DNA from: Ophelia neglecta | Taxonomy: Eukaryota | NCBI GenBank assembly: GCA_965285935.1 | Contig: OZ260666.1 | Location: 47,430,001 to 47,494,000 of the forward strand | Length of the DNA stretch: 64,000 nt | Direction of reading: 5' to 3' | Shown here: positions 2,817-52,230 of the stretch, in pieces | How positions within the stretch are numbered: position 1 is the stretch's first letter | How the letters are laid out: every line of letters begins with the position of its first letter | Notes under the pieces: model-generated | What the model saw: the letters and a program-made list of their open reading frames with translations, nothing else | Databases searched by the model: none | What the model was told of the DNA's origin: nothing | Position numbers and translations under genes: made by a program

Positions 2817-5357
2817 ATGGATATACGGAACAGAGTAAGCAAGGCGAGAAGGAACATTGCCGGAAAGATTTCAAGATTCCTGGACACCATTAACAATATC
2901 AGCATTTTGAGGGGTGAGGAGTTGGAGATCCCGGACGCATCTATTCCTGACTACTGGCGGGCCTGGCTCGATGAGGTCCGAGCATGGGAGAAAGTGGCAG
3001 TACTGGCTGGTCATCGTTCCTATACCTACCGCGCACTTGATCAGGAATCAGACCGAATACTGACAGTTTGCAGGCAGAAATGGCAGATGAAAACAGTTAT
3101 TGATGACTGTGTTATCGCCCTTTTTATCCCGCCATCATTTGAAAGGATTGCTGCGCTCATGGCCATATTGAAAATGGGATGTGCCTATATGCCTCTCGAG
3201 GAATCATTGCCAACAGCTCGTATAAGTCTTATGGTGGGCGAGGCGGAAGTGAAATATATTCTCACAACTTCCGAGCTAGCCAAGACATTTGCTGACGAGG
3301 ACTTCCTGGATTTGCAATTAAATATATTAAGTTATGCTGAAATAAAGGATCTATACGTTGAACCGAAAGAAGATGAGGTAAAAGATGAAGAGGTTCCCGA
3401 AGAAAAGAAAACAGATGTGGACAATGTAAATGAGATAAAAACCAATGGAACCAGTAGCAATCTTAACAAGCTGGTATCTGTGGTGTACACTTCCGGTAGT
3501 ACTGGAATATCTAAGGGAGTAAAGCTACGCACGGGCAATATAATGAACCGTCTCTTCTGGTACTGGAAAACGTTTCCATTCGGCGAGAACGAGGTTGGCT
3601 GCCACAAAACGTCATTCTTATTCATTGACTCTTTGACTGAAATTTTAGCTTGTGTGCTTCATGGTGTCCCGTTAGTAGTTCTTTCTAGTGAAAAGGCCCA
3701 GAACCCCTGTCAACTTCTGAAATCCATAAATGAGCACAAAGTATCTCGCCTCGTCCTCGTTCCTTCTCTCCTTCATTCGATGTTAGATATATGCGAAATG
3801 GAGAACTCTTTCGATCTGCTACAGCATCTAGAACTAGTCATCAGCAGTGGAGAACCACTGCCAGTCAATCTGGCCCACCGTTTCTTTGCACATGCGCCTG
3901 GAGCGTGCGTACTGGCAAATTTCTACGGCAGTACGGAGACAACTGGAGATGTATTCGCCAAGGTTTATTTCAACGATGGCGATGTTGACTATTTTCAAAT
4001 AGATAATAGTTTGTGCGTCGGGGCACCAATATCCAACACCAACGTGGTCATACTGAACAGGGAGGAAGAGCCGGTGAGAGAAGGAGAGCTGGGAATGATC
4101 TACATAAGCGGCCAAAACGTAGCAGACGGTTATGTCCGCAGTGGCTCAGACACTTTGTTTATTGATAACAAGTTCGACAACAGGCCAGGCCATGAGTTCC
4201 TATTTAACACGGGGGACATTGGTCTTGTCAAAGATGGCAAATTGTTTCTCTTCGGCCGGGCAGACGACATCATGAAAATCAGAGGCCATCGAGTAAATAT
4301 GTTAGAAATAGAGAAAGTAGTAGACAAGATCAAGTCAATTCAGCGCCGAGTTATTATTCCATGTCACGTCGGGGACCAGACCATGCCAGTTTGCTTCTGT
4401 CAGCTAGAGAAGGACAGCAACACAAATAAAGAGGATATTATACAAATTTTGCGTGGAGTTCTCCCAGCTTTCATGGTTCCTAGAGTTTTTATCATAGAGG
4501 AGTTCCCCTCTCAACCGTCTACAGGCAAAATCGACCGACAGGCCCTCAAGGAAATATTCTATCTGAAGCACGCTAACTCGCAATCCATCAAAGATGTCAG
4601 CGTTTGGGAAAGCATTCTGAACACTATTGTCCGTAACCTAGGAATCAGCCAATCTGACATCAAAAGTGACGACAATTTTATAGCACTTGGCGGAAATTCG
4701 CTAAGTGCTGTATCCACAATTGTCGAACTGAAAAGAATGGGATATTGCGTTTCCTTGGAACATTTTCTTCAGGTTTCAGACTTTCCAAAGTTTTGTAAAG
4801 ACCTAGCATCTAAGAGAAACTATAAGAAAAAACCGACAGTAGGCATATCAACTGATATAGAAAACTACAAACTAGAACAAGTAACCAGTCTACATGACGA
4901 TGACAGCAAGAAGACGATCCAGCTGCTGGCGACTGAATTCTCGAGGAAGAACCCACTAGATATCCTTGCTGGTTCAAGCCCACAACAAGTCGAGCGCCTC
5001 GTTATGAGTATCTGGAATGAAGTTCTTCACGACGACCTGTCTTTCGTGGTACGTGATGTCGCCAAAGGTAAAATAGTGGCCGTTACAATCCTTCTAGATG
5101 CCAATACCAATATAAACCCGGAGTTCGTCATGTATCATGTTGGAGCCATCAATGACGAGGTTGAACGCCCGGTAAAGGAACGTCTGCTCCGAGAAGGCGG
5201 TCATTGGGCGGACTCGATACTGAACGCAGTCGACTCCGGCGTGGCTGGAGACGAAGCCTTGATCATTCTACAGTTCATGGAGGAAGAGGTTCTCAGAGTG
5301 GCAGAGAGAAGAGGCTATGATGGAATTGTCACAGTCAACTCTCACCCTGTTACCATG
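2817..5357 (+). CDS. ebony: Ebony-like NRPS (beta-alanyl-biogenic-amine synthetase), coding exon 1: adenylation domain, thiolation domain and most of the C-terminal aaNAT-like domain
   Basis: 847 codons with NRPS A-domain core motifs YTSGSTGISKGV, SSGEPL, NFYGSTE, FNTGD, GRADDIMKIRGHRV and STGKIDR. Ebony-type NRLFWYW and HKTSFLFIDS. PCP motif DNFIALGGNSL (Ser628, 4698-4700). Ebony-like C-terminal blocks DLSFVVRD and FMEEEVLRVAERRGYDGIVTVNSHPVT. Ends at the donor ATG|GTTTGA (5357/5358). Confidence 0.93.
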
Positions 5358-6360
5358 GTTTGAATTTATCATAATTTCGCTCCGAATTCGTATGCCATAT
5401 ATATTTAAAGTAACAAGTGGCTTGTTTGGAAACTCTTCAAAATGGAATTTTTAAAGATTTTGTCCACAGTATGGGAGCCTAAATTGTATGGGCAGTAACC
5501 AAACGTAACTGGTAACCCATCAAATACGATTACGTCTACGGGTTATTTTGAATCACCAGACTGGGTTATTTCTGGGTCAACATGGATTTTGTCTTACTGT
5601 GCGTTATTGCACAGCTGAACACTGTACAAAAGCTCTGTACTGTGTTGTCATTGAAGTTCACAAGCCTGGATGTTTAGTGTGCGTCCTCTACATGCCAGCA
5701 AGCTGCAACGTTAAAGTATTGTGTACTCCGGGCTAATATTAAAAAAGACAGTTATATGTTTATATTATAATTATAATACTATCACACATTTCATATCCGT
5801 TCAATATCTGCCGCAACATGGTTATACTTGGTCAAGTGCACAAGTCGCTTGAGGGAAGATCGACGGCAGGTTTGAAGAAAAACAACTGCTTGTCTTGACA
5901 TAGCATGTCATAAACGTATTAGCAATTTCCGTCAAACAGTCAGAATTGACGGTTGCCATAGTCCAGTGATGCGTATGTTATTGAAAACGCAGATTTTGCG
6001 CCACTGGTACCATGATCATGCGCACAAAAATAGTTCATTTAAGGGAAACATATACGCCCTCAATCCATGTCCAAATTCCATGCGTTTGATAATGCTAGAG
6101 AAAAGTGGAATTGATTGGAATTGTTTAATGTTTACTTCATCAAAACATCCCATATGTTAATTGTTATACATACTACTAAAATAGATGCCAAAAATGTAGA
6201 AATTGCAGAAAAACATTGATACTGATCTGCTCTCTCATATGCGATCCTGTATGACTAATTACTCAATACGAGAACTTACGGATACTTATAAGGTCTGTGG
6301 CATTCTTCAGACCTTTATCATACGTATAGTATACAATATACGTCTTTTTTTAACTTTCAG
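5358..6360 (+). other. Phase-0 GT-AG intron of the ebony-like gene (1003 bp)
   Basis: Starts GTTTGA and ends with the polypyrimidine tract cgtcttttttttaactttcAG. Removing it joins two in-frame Ebony-homologous segments. Confidence 0.85.
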
Positions 6361-6498
6361 GCTATGGACGAGCATTATTTTGGGTACTCTGTAGAAAACG
6401 AGATCCAGGTGAAAGAATGGCAGTACCAAGGCAAAACACCCTTTGACAAGGCAGACGAAGATTACGTCATCAAGGCTATGGTTAAGCGATTGACATAG
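6361..6498 (+). CDS. ebony: Ebony-like NRPS, terminal coding exon 2 (AMDEHYFGYSVENEIQVKEWQYQGKTPFDKADEDYVIKAMVKRLT*)
   Basis: Strong acceptor at 6360. The 45 codons plus TAG are in frame with exon 1 and match the Ebony C-terminal pattern (Y..GY.....QV..Y...G..PF..A.D.......K). Not present in the supplied ORF track in this frame. Confidence 0.88.
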   Translation, partial: AMDEHYFGYSVENEIQVKEWQYQGKTPFDKADEDYVIKAMVKRLT

Positions 6499-21535: not shown

Positions 21536-22344
21536 AATACCGTAATTTGTACCTATCAGCGCACCCAAAACCTTACCAAAATACTCGTAATATTAATTTA
21601 AGAAGTCGACCTACAGAAGTGCTTAATGGCCAAGTTAGTTGAAAAAATATTTGATAAAATGCCATTACTAAATTTCCCGCGTAGAGAAATCAAAGTATTT
21701 AACGGCTATATCATCGCCCCCCAGGACTCAGTCTAGATTGAGACAGAGACCTGAAAGTCTGGAAATTTGTCAGAATGGGTGACTCTGTATACTGTAATTC
21801 TTAGATACTGACAAATTGTAACACTTTGACAATGGATTTTTTCTGGTACTCACTTTTTTTTCTGTTTATATGTTAAAGCTTTTATTGACTAATATACATG
21901 TATCAATTAAGATTAATATTACAAATAAAAGTGTTACGTTTAGCTAGGAGAACTTAGTTTTGATATCATCTCCACGTCATGGACACCCATTGACTTTGAG
22001 TGTGCGATATTTTCTCTCCAAAATAATAATTTATCGCTCAGTTTTACTTCATAAATATCCCGACTACAATGTTCGGTGACACATTGGAGACAAATTTCAC
22101 AAGTCGTTCGTGTCACCGTCACGTGTGGGTAGGTAAAATATATGCAACACAAGAGCCTGTTGACATTTACGTAGGCATCCTGCTTATCACTACTCGTGTA
22201 TCAATTCGCTTACTTGTCCCTTCATTATTACGCGGCGGACTAGTTTGTTATCATTAGGACTAAAGCCTGCTTAAATGACGTGTCGTTTTGTTACTTTTTC
22301 AATATTTAGGCCTATATACCTTGAAGAGAGGCAAAGGTTCTTAC

Positions 22345-23017
22345 CGTCTGCCCGCTTCCCGAGGTCGGTTCGAAACATACTTCTTTTCCCCAGATCGGTC
22401 CGAAACATACTTCTTTTCCCCAGATCGGTCCTAAACATACTTCTTCGTTTTTCCTCGTCGTATTTTCCTCCCAGATCTGACTTGAAGCCGCTGAACCGTT
22501 TTCCGAGGTCTGCTCTAAACATCGCTCGTTTCTGCTCGTTGTCACCAAGATTAAGTAGGTTAAGTAGGTCTTGTTCGTCCATGTACAAGTCGTCATCATC
22601 TAAATAAGTCCGTTTACCCAAATCTGCCCTGAAACTGTTGAAGCGTTTCTCAGTGGAATCCATGCCGGATCGCTTGCCCAAATCCGTACGAAAACTTTGG
22701 AAACGTTTCCCTAGGTCGGCTCTGAAGGCGTTGAGACGCTTCAAAAGTTCCCTCTTGCCGAGGTCAGCCCGGAAGGAGCTGAGCCGCTTGTTCTCTGCCC
22801 TCTTACCGAGATCGGCGCGAAAGGCACTAAATCGTTTGTCATCGTCCCCGTCACTGCGCTTGCCCAGATCGTTCCGGAAGTGGCTGAAGCGTTTTTCATT
22901 GCTGAGCGCCACCGCGTCGTCTTCTGGGAGTTCCGACGCTATTACGTGATTCCATTGCATACATACCGTCACAACTGCCGCGACACAAATTCTTTGGACA
23001 AGCGTGGCACAACCCAT
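22345..23017 (-). CDS. DLa: DLamide (FRxDLamide) neuropeptide precursor, main coding exon
   Basis: N-terminal hydrophobic signal peptide (MGCATLVQRICVAAVVTVCMQWNHVIA) and acidic spacers. KR-flanked Gly-extended peptides: FSHFRNDL, FSAFRADL, LSSFRADL, LNAFRADL, FQSFRTDL, FNSFRADL, AMFRADL and 3x SMFRTDL (each followed by GKR), plus the variant FSGFKSDLGGK. The FRADLamide motif is characteristic of spiralian DLamides. Acceptor tttttcagcag directly precedes the ATG and the donor GACG|GTAAGA is at 22345/22344. Unspliced, the ORF runs to 22271. Confidence 0.92.
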
Positions 23018-26000
23018 CTGCTGAAAAATAGAAGTAACAAGGCTTAAAATAAGTTATCCCTTGTAATAAACTATTGAAAGCACACATATAATTAGGTGTC
23101 ATTGAATGTAAAATAGGCCACTTATCACTAAAGTCCATGTTTTTGTGTATAGAAGTATAAGCAGAAGGTATAAAATTATTACTGGAAAGCTGAAAGTAAT
23201 CAAAACATTGTTTGGTTTTGAAATCAGCCTACTATTGAGTTGTTTCTTATTTTCTTGCAATGAAACCAAAATGCTACTGATTGCCGGCCACCTATACAGA
23301 GACATAATCAACGAGTCAGTGGAGTATCCTCGATATCATCTAAGTCAGAGACACATAGAGAGCTCAAACGTTATCGAAGAATGAATTCTTTATCATGCTT
23401 AATACTTAGTGATATTCCTTTTTTTTGTTTTAGAAAGCGCAAATTGCTTACATTGCAAGCAATACGTATTATTGAAGCGAATCACTAGGGCTTGCAGAGG
23501 GCCTTGAAGCATTTAACTGGACCTGTATGGTTCTATGGTTCAGAGGAAGGTAAATTTGAGACGGTAAAATAATATAGTAAAATATTGCTTCAAAGCATGT
23601 CTTTTTTTTCTTGGAACAAAGATAATGGTGATTATTTTATGATGTAACGGTTTTAGACGTAACTATCAAAGCAGAAAGGCCATAGCAGGTTGTCCAGAAA
23701 CTGCACAAAACAGAGACCTGCATTGAGAGAACACGGCAGCTAAAATGCCAGGTATATCGGTGCTCAGTTTACAAGTTTCCATCTTTGTCGGGAGAAGATA
23801 CCTACCAAATGTCTCACAAGAGCCCCAATAATGTATATAAGGACTGCGTTTAATGGGCCCGGTTGTGCGTACAGGACAGTTTTGTACCTCCACACACATT
23901 GTTTATCTTTATCTGGTGCTGGATGAGTCATTCGTAAGAACCTAAATACCATAATTTGTCGGTTTGTTCTTTTTCGCCAAATTGTTCTGATCCAAAGGTG
24001 CCTGTGCTATTCCTATGTGATGATAGAATCGTTCTTGGTAGCACTCCCCAGTTATACTTTCTTAGTGGTTTCATTTGTAAAATTGACTATTTTTTTTTCC
24101 GGGATGGATCAAGCTGGCTTTCTTTTCAAGCAATGGATAGTGTATGCAGAAACAGATATTTCAAAACACGATTGCATATAAAGCAAAAATCGTTACGGAG
24201 CTGTGCAAGGTATAATTTGAAGGAAGTTTAAACTAAACCTATTTTATACCGAGTTCTTACATCATTGGCCGCACCCTCTCTATGATTGCTTAGAAGTGAT
24301 AAAAGTCTATAAAATAATCTCAACAATAAACAAGTCTGTCTTTGTTATGACATCAGAAAGATGTTAGTAATGTTGACTGTCTATAATTTGTAATATGGGA
24401 AATCTACTGTTAAGATAGTTTTATGTCCTTCTAATGGAATGGAATTTATTGCTAAACTCTCAATTCGTGAACATTGGAATTCAGAGATTTAATTGTCCAC
24501 ACTTAAGGTGCATTACACTGGGGCGCATCCATATTTTTGGCTTGATAAGCAGATTGATCTTGTCTGGCCTTATTACCATTGCCCGGATGATCACCACTTG
24601 TATCTTAAACCTGGGACGTCTTTGCTGACATTTTCGCCACAAAATCCTGCAAGTACGTTCGTAAATACTAAAATTACCATTACCAGCTTTTATTTTGTCA
24701 ACTTTCGGAATAACATTGCTTATTCAGAGATATATATTAAGGGTAATTCAGATTGAGTCGTTGTCTGCAATATAAGACAGATTGGTTTATTTTGGTCGAT
24801 GCCACTGCAATACCTTATAATCGGACTGAATGTTGAACAGACTACTAATAAGAATAAACTACCTATACACGGAACGCTGTTAAAGCCCGAATGACTATTT
24901 ATGAACTTATGTAAGTCTAACCAGCATTAATTGTACAGAAATGATAGGCACTGTTGGATGTTTCCGAACTTTTGCGTCAATCGATAGAAATATCAAGAAT
25001 AAATTAAACTATTTTAGTGGCAATCTCTCCTGTTTCATTAACACCTAATTCGTTCGAGACCTGTACCTTATGAAAATTCAGATTCTAGGGCTAGGAGAAA
25101 GCTCTCACCTTGGACGTTATAGGAGCATCTACTTGGCATACGATTCTGATTGCTTTGAAATGCTCTATAATGCAGATACTGGGGCGTTTTCAAAGCCTCG
25201 GGCAGCATTGATTGATTTTTTGAAGAGGGTTACTCTAGGGAGTAGACAAATACATTAACGCATGCGGTTCAATGGAAATCGGTTTTCACATTTGGGTAAC
25301 TTTCACCTTATGTTTGACTTACTGCAAAAAAGTCAGTACCCCTAGGACCAAGGCCAGTCAAATCATTTTACACAACTGGTAAGCAGTTTTTCGCAGTTGC
25401 ATTTCAAAGGTTGAACCAAATGGCTATGCCTTTGCCGAAACAACGCCATGCCACTTAGGATATTACTACTGGTAAAGATTGTGGTCAACTAGGTCGGGAT
25501 TTCTTTCCGCCTTTTTAAATTTGAAAGCTAACCTACGATTAACTAGATAAAAACCTAAGCACACAAAGAGGAATTTGTGCGCCAGAGGAGCCAATGAATA
25601 AAGAAATGGGGAGGCCCCCTTTTTGGAGGTTTTTTCTTCGGGCATGACAAAAACATCAACATTGACTTATTTGTTTATTTACCCAATTCCACCATCTTTG
25701 GGTATAAACATTCCTCCTAAGCGATATTCTTTGGGACCCAACATACAATGAACTTGTATAATGGGAACATTAATTAACATTAATAGTCATATATTCATTT
25801 CATTTAGTTAAATATGAAGCACCGTTGCATTTCACGTTAGTAGGAAGCCACTGCGACATCGCGTTCACTAGATCTAACCGGTCTTTTTTGATTATTAAAA
25901 CCACTCTCGAATTTAAAAGGGCATTTTTATCAAATTTGGTTAACCCCTTAATACCATAGAGTCATTTACAATTGCATTAAAAACGGCAAAATGCTACGTT

Positions 26001-50518: not shown

Positions 50519-51629
50519 TAAATGATTCTCACCAAAGAAGTCCGATCATTGGATCCGGGGACAAAGTGTGCCTCTGTCATGGATCTCATCATTTTGTCCC
50601 TGTCATAGATCTCAACATACAGCGAAGGGTCTTTCAATTGCAAGCTACGAGGTAGCGTTAATCAGTAGTGGGCCATGATTTATCATATACTGCGTATTTC
50701 TAATACCGAAACCGATGGTCTCCTATAACATGAGTAACCACCGGCAGGTGACGTTTACACCGACCTCCCGGTGTCTTTGACAGCGCCGCGCTAGCCGAAT
50801 TTATGGGTTGGGCAGTCAATAATGTCTGGTTGTGACATTTCGATTTATCCAACTAGTATACAGACATATAGCAGACTAGTTTTATTAACTAGTTAACATC
50901 TACATGTAGGCCCAGTTTAAAGAAACCGTGCAACCAGGTCTCTGGCTTGCGAAACAAACGAGTACACGAGTTTCATTTACAATCAAGTAGGCCTAAATGA
51001 ACATTGCTTGCAAGAAGTAAACAGGTATATGGAGCTAGATTTATAGTTAATATTCATATCCAATTTTACATTGTATGGATGCTTTTGACGGAAATTGTTG
51101 CCAGACATATTAGAGCAGATCATTCACATAGATGATAAAGAACGACGTGGACAATTTCTTACGGAATCCATCCTTGGTTAACGCGATATGTTGGCGGATT
51201 TATTGTCATCTGTCACGACCGATGTATTTGCAGTAAATTATTTTAGTCATACGGGATGGTTTTGATGGATTCTGTATCCTTGCTCAGAAAAAGGTTGAAA
51301 CATATGGGTAAACAACATTAACAGTAACCCATTATCTGTTAGGCCTATAAGAGAATAGATATGTATAACAAGAAAATGGAATACCTTGTAAACTAGAACA
51401 AGTCGAGTATACCCTCCTAACCGCAAATAACAACCCCAACCCGACTTTCAATATCATTGACATGAAAGGAATGGTACATTACTAGGTAAAAAGGAACATA
51501 AAAAGGAAATACAGGTAGCACATGCATCTGTGCATGCTCAAAGACAACAAATTGACCCCATTTCACCCCCATAAGTGACCGCAGAGCAAAATGGGTGCTG
51601 GCGATACACCCCGTCAATACTCCGTATTG

Positions 51630-52230
51630 TGGGTCAGGTAAAATAACAGGGAAGTAAAATAGGGCACATAATGCGTACAGTAAAGAAGCACGGAGGTACA
51701 GCACTGTGTACCGTGTGTCAAGTAAAATAACATGAAGCTACAGCACCTTGTATAGTGTGTCAAGTAAAATAACACGGACGTACACCATGGTGTTACATAC
51801 AATAACATGAAGGTACAACACTGTGTATCGTGTGTCAAGTAAAATAACACGAAGGTACAACACTTTGTAACGTGTGTCAAGTAAAATAAAACGGAGGTAT
51901 GGCACTGTGTATAGTGTGTCAAGTAAAATGACACGGAGGTACAATACGGTGTAACGTGTGTCAGGTAAAACAACACGGAAGTACAACACTGTGTAAAATA
52001 ACACGGACTAGGTATAACACCACGTATTGTGTGTCATGTAAAATAACACGGAGGTGAAACACTGTCTATCATGGCAGACAAAATAACACGGAGGTATAAA
52101 CATTGTTTTGCGTGTCAGGTAAAGTGAATGATTGAAGCACAACAAACCGTGTATCATGACAGAGGAAATTACACCGATGTACAACATAGTGTATCGTGTC
52201 AGATAAGATATCTCGGAAGTTCAACAGGGT
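51630..52230. repeat. 42-bp minisatellite (gtgtcaagtaaaataacacggaggtacaacactgtgtatcgt), about 14 degenerate copies
   Basis: GTCAAG/GTCAGG anchors at 51717, 51759, 51834, 51876, 51918 and 51960 (42-bp period, one shortened unit). Explains the 14-aa periodic ORFs on the minus strand. Confidence 0.92.

Follow-up and report, generated by a model that had tools for sequence, protein, structure and literature searches.

Does the Ebony-like gene at positions 2817..6498 of the window, which is the whole 64,000-nucleotide stretch of Ophelia neglecta DNA analysed here, encode an enzyme with the same amine preference as insect Ebony, or does it make another beta-alanyl conjugate? Drosophila Ebony is a beta-alanyl-dopamine/carcinine synthase, and the structure of its C-terminal domain is known (PDB 6DYM). 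The reading that we favour, with about even confidence, is that the gene encodes an intact adenylation-carrier-aaNAT-fold enzyme of an annelid-centred Ebony subfamily, which would make a beta-alanyl-amine from an acceptor of more polar or cationic character than the catecholamines that insect Ebony uses.

Gene structure and domain architecture

The gene comprises two exons separated by one intron (Table 1). The predicted splice joining 5357 to 6361 is backed by homology and gives a product of 892 aa with a single terminal stop. The start of exon 1 is common to P0003, a relative with 65% identity. The intron opens with GT at 5358, its pyrimidine-rich acceptor ends with AG at 6360, and its position is identical in the paralogue on contig C8 and fits the read-through tails seen in relatives from the database. 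An annotated Owenia protein ends in a stretch that shares 25/43 residues with exon 2 (E 5e-17). Alone, exon 2 gave no BLASTP alignment with Drosophila Ebony, with which it was aligned in the multiple alignment. Three runs of one sample, which may be the source sample of the assembly and hence not independent of it, provided contigs that span the 2817..6498 stretch with exons free of frameshifts. These contigs show two indels, both intronic, and three coding differences, of which one falls in the acidic insert and the other two are synonymous.

Table 1 Features of the Ebony-like gene and its product (positions in the window)
Feature	Position	Strand	Basis
Exon 1, coding, residues 1-847	2817..5357	+	Stop-free frame from ATG 2817; 847 codons
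Intron, phase 0, GT-AG, 1003 bases	5358..6360	+	Homology
Exon 2, final 45 residues of the C-terminal domain and TAG	6361..6498	+	45 codons and stop
Basic amphipathic N-terminal helix, residues 1-27	2817..2897	+	26/27 residues as in P0003
Adenylation (A) domain, about residues 58-580, catalytic Lys571	2988..4556	+	Pfam, LgrA alignment, model
Acidic low-confidence insert in the A domain, residues 184-213	3366..3455	+	pLDDT <50
Carrier (T) domain, residues 599-651, GGNS motif, Ser628 at 4698-4700	4611..4769	+	Pfam PF00550
aaNAT-fold (amine-selecting) C-terminal domain, first part	4863..5357	+	6DYM match, alignment, model
Pocket-region residues of the C-terminal domain: Asp715 (4959), Asn779 (5151), Asp799 (5211), Thr839, Asn841			

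Pfam assigns AMP-binding to residues 58-439 (E 6e-59) and PP-binding to the carrier domain (E 3e-6). The carrier serine and the catalytic motifs of the A domain are all present (GGNS628, YTSGSTG, YGSTE, TGD, and K571), and Ser628 is invariant in 11/11 rows compared. The A-T-C-terminal plan includes neither a canonical condensation domain nor a thioesterase domain. By sequence, the closing 165 residues of exon 1 are matched best by the C-terminal domain of Drosophila Ebony (6DYM; E 1.4e-9). The structure model of the C-terminal part (pLDDT 94.7), which covers the exon 1 part only, without the 45 residues of exon 2, also retrieved 6DYM first, both by Foldseek (E 3.6e-10) and by VIA-align (Z 20.0, rmsd 1.9, 164 aligned), and the ESM Atlas returned Ebony clusters at 0.99. 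The frame, the splice, the Pfam matches, and the 6DYM match bear out the intact A-T-C-terminal architecture of about 892 aa proposed in the initial annotation.

The next fold matches by VIA-align were the polyamine acetyltransferase A654L of Chlorella virus (3QB8, Z 18.2) and insect aaNATs (Z 14-15). The C-terminal domain resembles insect aaNATs and agmatine/polyamine N-acetyltransferases in fold, and a shared fold does not mean a shared substrate. Unlike the protein described here, these acetyltransferases are stand-alone acyl-CoA enzymes; identity to them is 12-20%, and the Glu of the aaNAT EPL motif corresponds to Asn712.

The N-terminal helix carries a net charge of +5 and has a hydrophobic moment of 0.64, against a 95th percentile of 0.48 within the protein; it is possibly a targeting element or a membrane anchor. 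Basic extensions resembling it are found in P0005 and P0103, and most other relatives are without one. In the region of the acidic insert (161-200), 12/40 residues are identical to P0003.

It is very improbable that the gene is a silent or decaying copy, although introns are few and the canonical polyadenylation hexamer is absent in the 1.1 kb downstream. Against such decay stand the intact 892-codon frame, the canonical intron at a shared position, the complete catalytic motifs, the restriction of read indels to the intron, and the retention of 21/21 family-conserved columns in the C-terminal domain.

Phylogenetic placement

A profile search against 1.84 billion representatives had 311 matches at E <= 0.001, and the best 150 of these 311 were listed. 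IQ-TREE, run on 47 chosen rows and 623 columns under LG+G4 with two fragments excluded, placed the gene within a 15-row clade with support of 100/99. Five of the 14 database members of this clade are named, all of them annelids: Owenia (2), Paralvinella, Capitella, and Dimorphilus. The clade nests in a 23-row side (100/96), which also takes in the paralogue of contig C5 and additional proteins of Owenia and Tubulanus; the C8 paralogue clusters with Lineus (98/93). As nemerteans are present on both sides of the tree, a duplication before the annelid-nemertean split is suggested.

In an A-domain tree of 43 rows, which included seven bacterial outgroups and one plant outgroup and from which 15 family rows were left out, the Ebony family forms one clade of 35 rows (100/98) and the A domain of the gene is nested inside it. 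By sequence, the gene is placed as a member of the Ebony/SmNRPS family; this placement and the annelid names in its clade agree with the initial description of an Ebony-like enzyme from an animal that is neither an insect nor a flatworm. No flatworm-named sequence (SmNRPS, planarian NRPS) occurs among the 30 proteins looked up or the 120 rows, and the unnamed rows might include some. Two further rows, P0185 (myxobacterial, Pendulispora rubella) and P0381 (metagenome), nest within the Ebony family and exhibit a beta-alanine-type code.

The initial annotation had named 1:1 orthology with insect Ebony as the ordinary alternative. A constraint placing the 15 clade rows and nine arthropod-side rows alone together was rejected (p-AU 0.0003, LG+G4; the group was picked after the tree had been seen), and the genome encodes three paralogues with different pockets, so that the gene is not a 1:1 Ebony orthologue. 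The C8 paralogue was considered as the true Ebony orthologue and dropped, since in the rooted A-domain tree the three paralogues share a 26-row group (98/95) that contains no insects.

That annelids possess the family agrees with earlier work. According to Suring 2023 (PMC10531068), A domains of Annelida, Nemertea, Priapulida, Hemichordata, and Cnidaria fall within the Ebony/SmNRPS clade, and Table S5 of that paper lists 19 loci from seven annelid species, including Capitella ELU18796.1, taken from Chen 2022. This listed protein falls in the 15-row clade of the gene. Along with Owenia CAH1789321.1 and P0102, Paralvinella LSH36_3g07019, and Dimorphilus DgyrCDS11976, Capitella teleta ELU18796.1 has largely the same C-terminal signature as the Ophelia protein. 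NCBI names nemertean relatives ebony-like. The beta-alanyl-tryptamine synthases Schistosoma SmNRPS and Schmidtea NRPS are described as having the same three-domain plan and belonging to the same family (PMC11214079, PMC10531068). A literature search covering few subscription papers found no published characterisation of an annelid member or of the pocket signature described below.

Acid pocket of the adenylation domain

Read in the register that the LgrA alignment sets, the pocket comprises I270, D271, T274, V313, I342, S344, F369, G377, D378, and K571, that is, IDTVISFGDK. These are the same ten residues that had been read by eye in the initial annotation. Code positions are given in GrsA numbering. 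All insect rows (6/6) exhibit VDxVVSFGDK, the closest relative, with 73% A-domain identity, exhibits VDTVISFGDK, and a scorpion protein annotated ebony exhibits IDTVISLGDK. The comparison with the insect rows upholds the earlier assignment of a beta-alanine-type code, and beta-alanine is likely to be the substrate acid.

The residues D236, G330, D331, and K517 are kept in 12/15 clade rows. The clade is not uniform, because three members have lost the beta-alanine code: P0104, P0121, and P0118 have rebuilt acid pockets (VEHGANMGDK, VEVGITVGDK, and VDFVFEGANK, respectively) and retain much of the C-terminal signature. Unlike the Ophelia gene, Paralvinella LSH36_3g07019 has the rebuilt pocket VEHGANMGDK. 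Elsewhere among the relatives, P0189, P0209, and P0210 (about 760-795 aa) combine an Ebony-type C-terminal domain with a degenerate A-domain code and are without a carrier motif in the alignment.

The A domain could in principle take another small acid, such as glycine, GABA, or 3-aminoisobutyrate, which would lead to a different aminoacyl-amine. Ile235, Thr239, and Ile299 are three code differences from the insect rows, Phe380 follows Asp331-Val where relatives have Thr, Ser, or Cys, and pockets are rebuilt in some clade members. However, the code differences are conservative and all of them occur in relatives as well, one of these being annotated ebony, and D236, G330, D331, and K517 are intact in the protein, which makes this alternative quite improbable.

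Predicted amine pocket of the C-terminal domain

The amine-selecting domain had initially been described as divergent. This description holds for a conserved subfamily signature at the predicted pocket positions, but not for the distance from insect Ebony, which is not special. On average, the C-terminal domains in the clade of the gene share 24.1% identity with those of insects (90 pairs), and those in the C8 paralogue's clade share 23.8% (30 pairs); as the latter clade is equally distant, the distance is generic. The protein itself differs from insect Ebony with an identity of 37-40% in the A domain and 25-29% in the C-terminal domain (six insect rows). Among the nearest relatives, conservation is higher in the C-terminal domain than in the A domain (54-59% vs 42-47%). 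As a trend for the whole clade this was rejected, because it fails over all pairs, with 37.6% vs 39.3% and a higher value in 33/105.

The ligand contacts of the Ebony amine pocket, a list reportedly stemming from Izore in 2019, are taken here to be F689, E696, V760, F761, L764, H785, S786, T825, and N827. The numbering was checked on the Drosophila sequence for F689 and E696, these two positions only. The Drosophila row comes from the e4 mutant, part of whose A domain is deleted, and therefore served for the C-terminal domain alone. At the nine contacts, the Ophelia protein is identical in five (the equivalents of F689, V760, S786, T825, and N827), conservative in one, and changed in three. 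The substitutions are E696 to Asp715, F761 to Gly776, L764 to Asn779, and H785 to Asp799.

The distribution of these residues was examined in a C-terminal-domain alignment of 130 rows, in which a 22-row clade containing the gene has a FastTree support of 1.00. Asn at position 764 is present in 14/22 clade rows and 1/107 others, and Asp at position 785 in 16/21 clade rows and 1/108 others; both are found in 0/33 arthropod-side rows. Since the clade rows share ancestry, these counts indicate long conservation rather than independent repeated events. The change from Glu696 to Asp is conservative, with Asp in 4/30 arthropod-side rows. Among the conserved columns, 21 have the same residue in the clade and in the 33 arthropod-side rows, and the gene matches 21/21. 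A further 14 columns are conserved within each group yet different between them, and there the gene matches its own clade in 14/14. An Owenia protein has the same residue at 12/12 selected pocket-region positions, at 54% domain identity. On these sequence comparisons, the C-terminal domain is classed as a conserved subfamily type, common to proteins of Owenia, Paralvinella, Capitella, and Dimorphilus. The Asn/Asp signature might also be common to the tryptamine-using enzymes SmNRPS and planarian NRPS.

Paralogues and genomic surroundings

Two A-domain searches of the 762 Mb genome gave three family genes: the window gene, one at C8:84.95 Mb, and one at C5:58.91 Mb. The C8 paralogue (C8:84947918-84952531; L006 3918-7412 and 8397-8531) has the code VDVVVNYADK, a hydrophobic amine pocket, and an aaNAT-like EPL motif, and near its N-terminus a long insert of low complexity contains short peptide repeats in tandem. 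Upstream of it, on the minus strand, lies a frame (L006 149-655) presumably akin to the C-terminus of a LINE reverse transcriptase. The C5 paralogue (C5:58908386-58910842; L009 5386-7842) is more unusual than the 2817..6498 gene. Its acid pocket is rebuilt to IALFGGICYK, without Asp236 and Asp331, and judging from this code it likely activates another acid. Its C-terminal domain is 20% identical to that of the window gene, and its sister is P0168 (100/100). An exon 2 was looked for in the C5 paralogue and not found.

No pathway gene was recognised nearby: 0/126 frames pass the Pfam cut-off, the set comprising the 110 longest of the window and 16/18 from the 10 kb upstream, from which short exons escape. 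The sole weak match, to a Galaxin repeat and below the cut-off, comes from one frame in tandem short repeats at 51420-52220 of the window, likely a non-coding repeat. In the genome, an exon-by-exon search, which shows no absence, gave no match to a Tan-type hydrolase (PF03417) or a PPTase (PF01648). PLP decarboxylase loci are many, with 44 exon matches, 0 of them on the contig of the window (C9). The window also contains, on the minus strand at 22274-23053, a DLamide-type neuropeptide precursor: its N-terminal stretch is hydrophobic, and ten amidated xFRxDL-Gly peptides lie between dibasic sites. This neuropeptide class has been described from annelids (PMC3503879), which is in line with an annelid host.

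Proposed function

By analogy, the enzyme is very probably a beta-alanyl-amine synthase. With the Ebony-type mechanism (PMC11214079, PMC10510592) as a model, the A domain would adenylate beta-alanine with ATP, the beta-alanine would then be loaded as a thioester on the phosphopantetheine of Ser628, and a primary amine brought in by the C-terminal domain would attack the thioester. The three paralogues would split substrates among themselves. The product may be a signal, as the initial annotation proposed, or an inactivated amine. The protein shares with Drosophila Ebony the A-T-aaNAT-fold plan, the carrier serine, the beta-alanine-type code, the C-terminal fold, and the five retained contacts. 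It differs in E696D, F761G, L764N, and H785D, in its separate clade, in having three paralogues, and in its basic N-terminal helix.

The replacement of Leu764, His785, and Phe761 by Asn779, Asp799, and Gly776, together with that of Glu696 by Asp715 and the conservation of the other five contacts, points to an acceptor with a second polar or charged group. We consider it an evenly balanced prediction that the acceptor has shifted to a polar or cationic amine, which may be histamine, giving carcinine, or a diamine or agmatine.

Ebony is promiscuous, and two polar swaps may therefore leave the amine class unchanged. The enzyme would then be a broad beta-alanyl transferase for aromatic monoamines (dopamine, serotonin, tryptamine, histamine), with the product set by the amine of the cell. 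The retained equivalents of Phe689, Val760, Ser786, Thr825, and Asn827, the acid kept at 696, and the widening of the pocket that Phe761 to Gly would bring are all consistent with such an ordinary acceptor, and with tryptamine the enzyme could make BATT, a reproductive signal of the flatworm type. Planarian BATT, as reported in PMC11214079, depends on co-expression with AADC, and PLP decarboxylase loci are plentiful in the Ophelia genome. On the other hand, Asn764 and Asp785 are fixed clade-wide and nearly absent elsewhere, the C8 paralogue, with its hydrophobic pocket and EPL motif, could take this role, and the contig of the window has no decarboxylase match. We regard an ordinary acceptor as somewhat less probable than a polar or cationic one.

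A more far-reaching version of the polar-acceptor reading is unlikely, though conceivable. The acidic pocket of an old annelid Ebony subfamily would here yield a beta-alanyl conjugate new for animal NRPSs, for example of a diamine, a polyamine, or agmatine, and with the two paralogues, each tuned differently, it would provide a small range of non-ribosomal dipeptide signals in annelid reproduction or development.

Significance

That the family occurs in annelids was already known; the gene adds a member to it, with a subfamily-level pocket signature that leads to a testable prediction. In flatworms, beta-alanyl-tryptamine is a reproductive signal, and a commentary urges that genes related to nrps be tested in other animals (PMC11260119). 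The locus answers that call with a near-intronless, intact enzyme that is typical of a subfamily found across annelids, whose pocket signature is fixed, and with two paralogues that exhibit other pockets. This set makes accessible the question of whether the products of animal Ebony enzymes have diversified by retuning of the acceptor domain.
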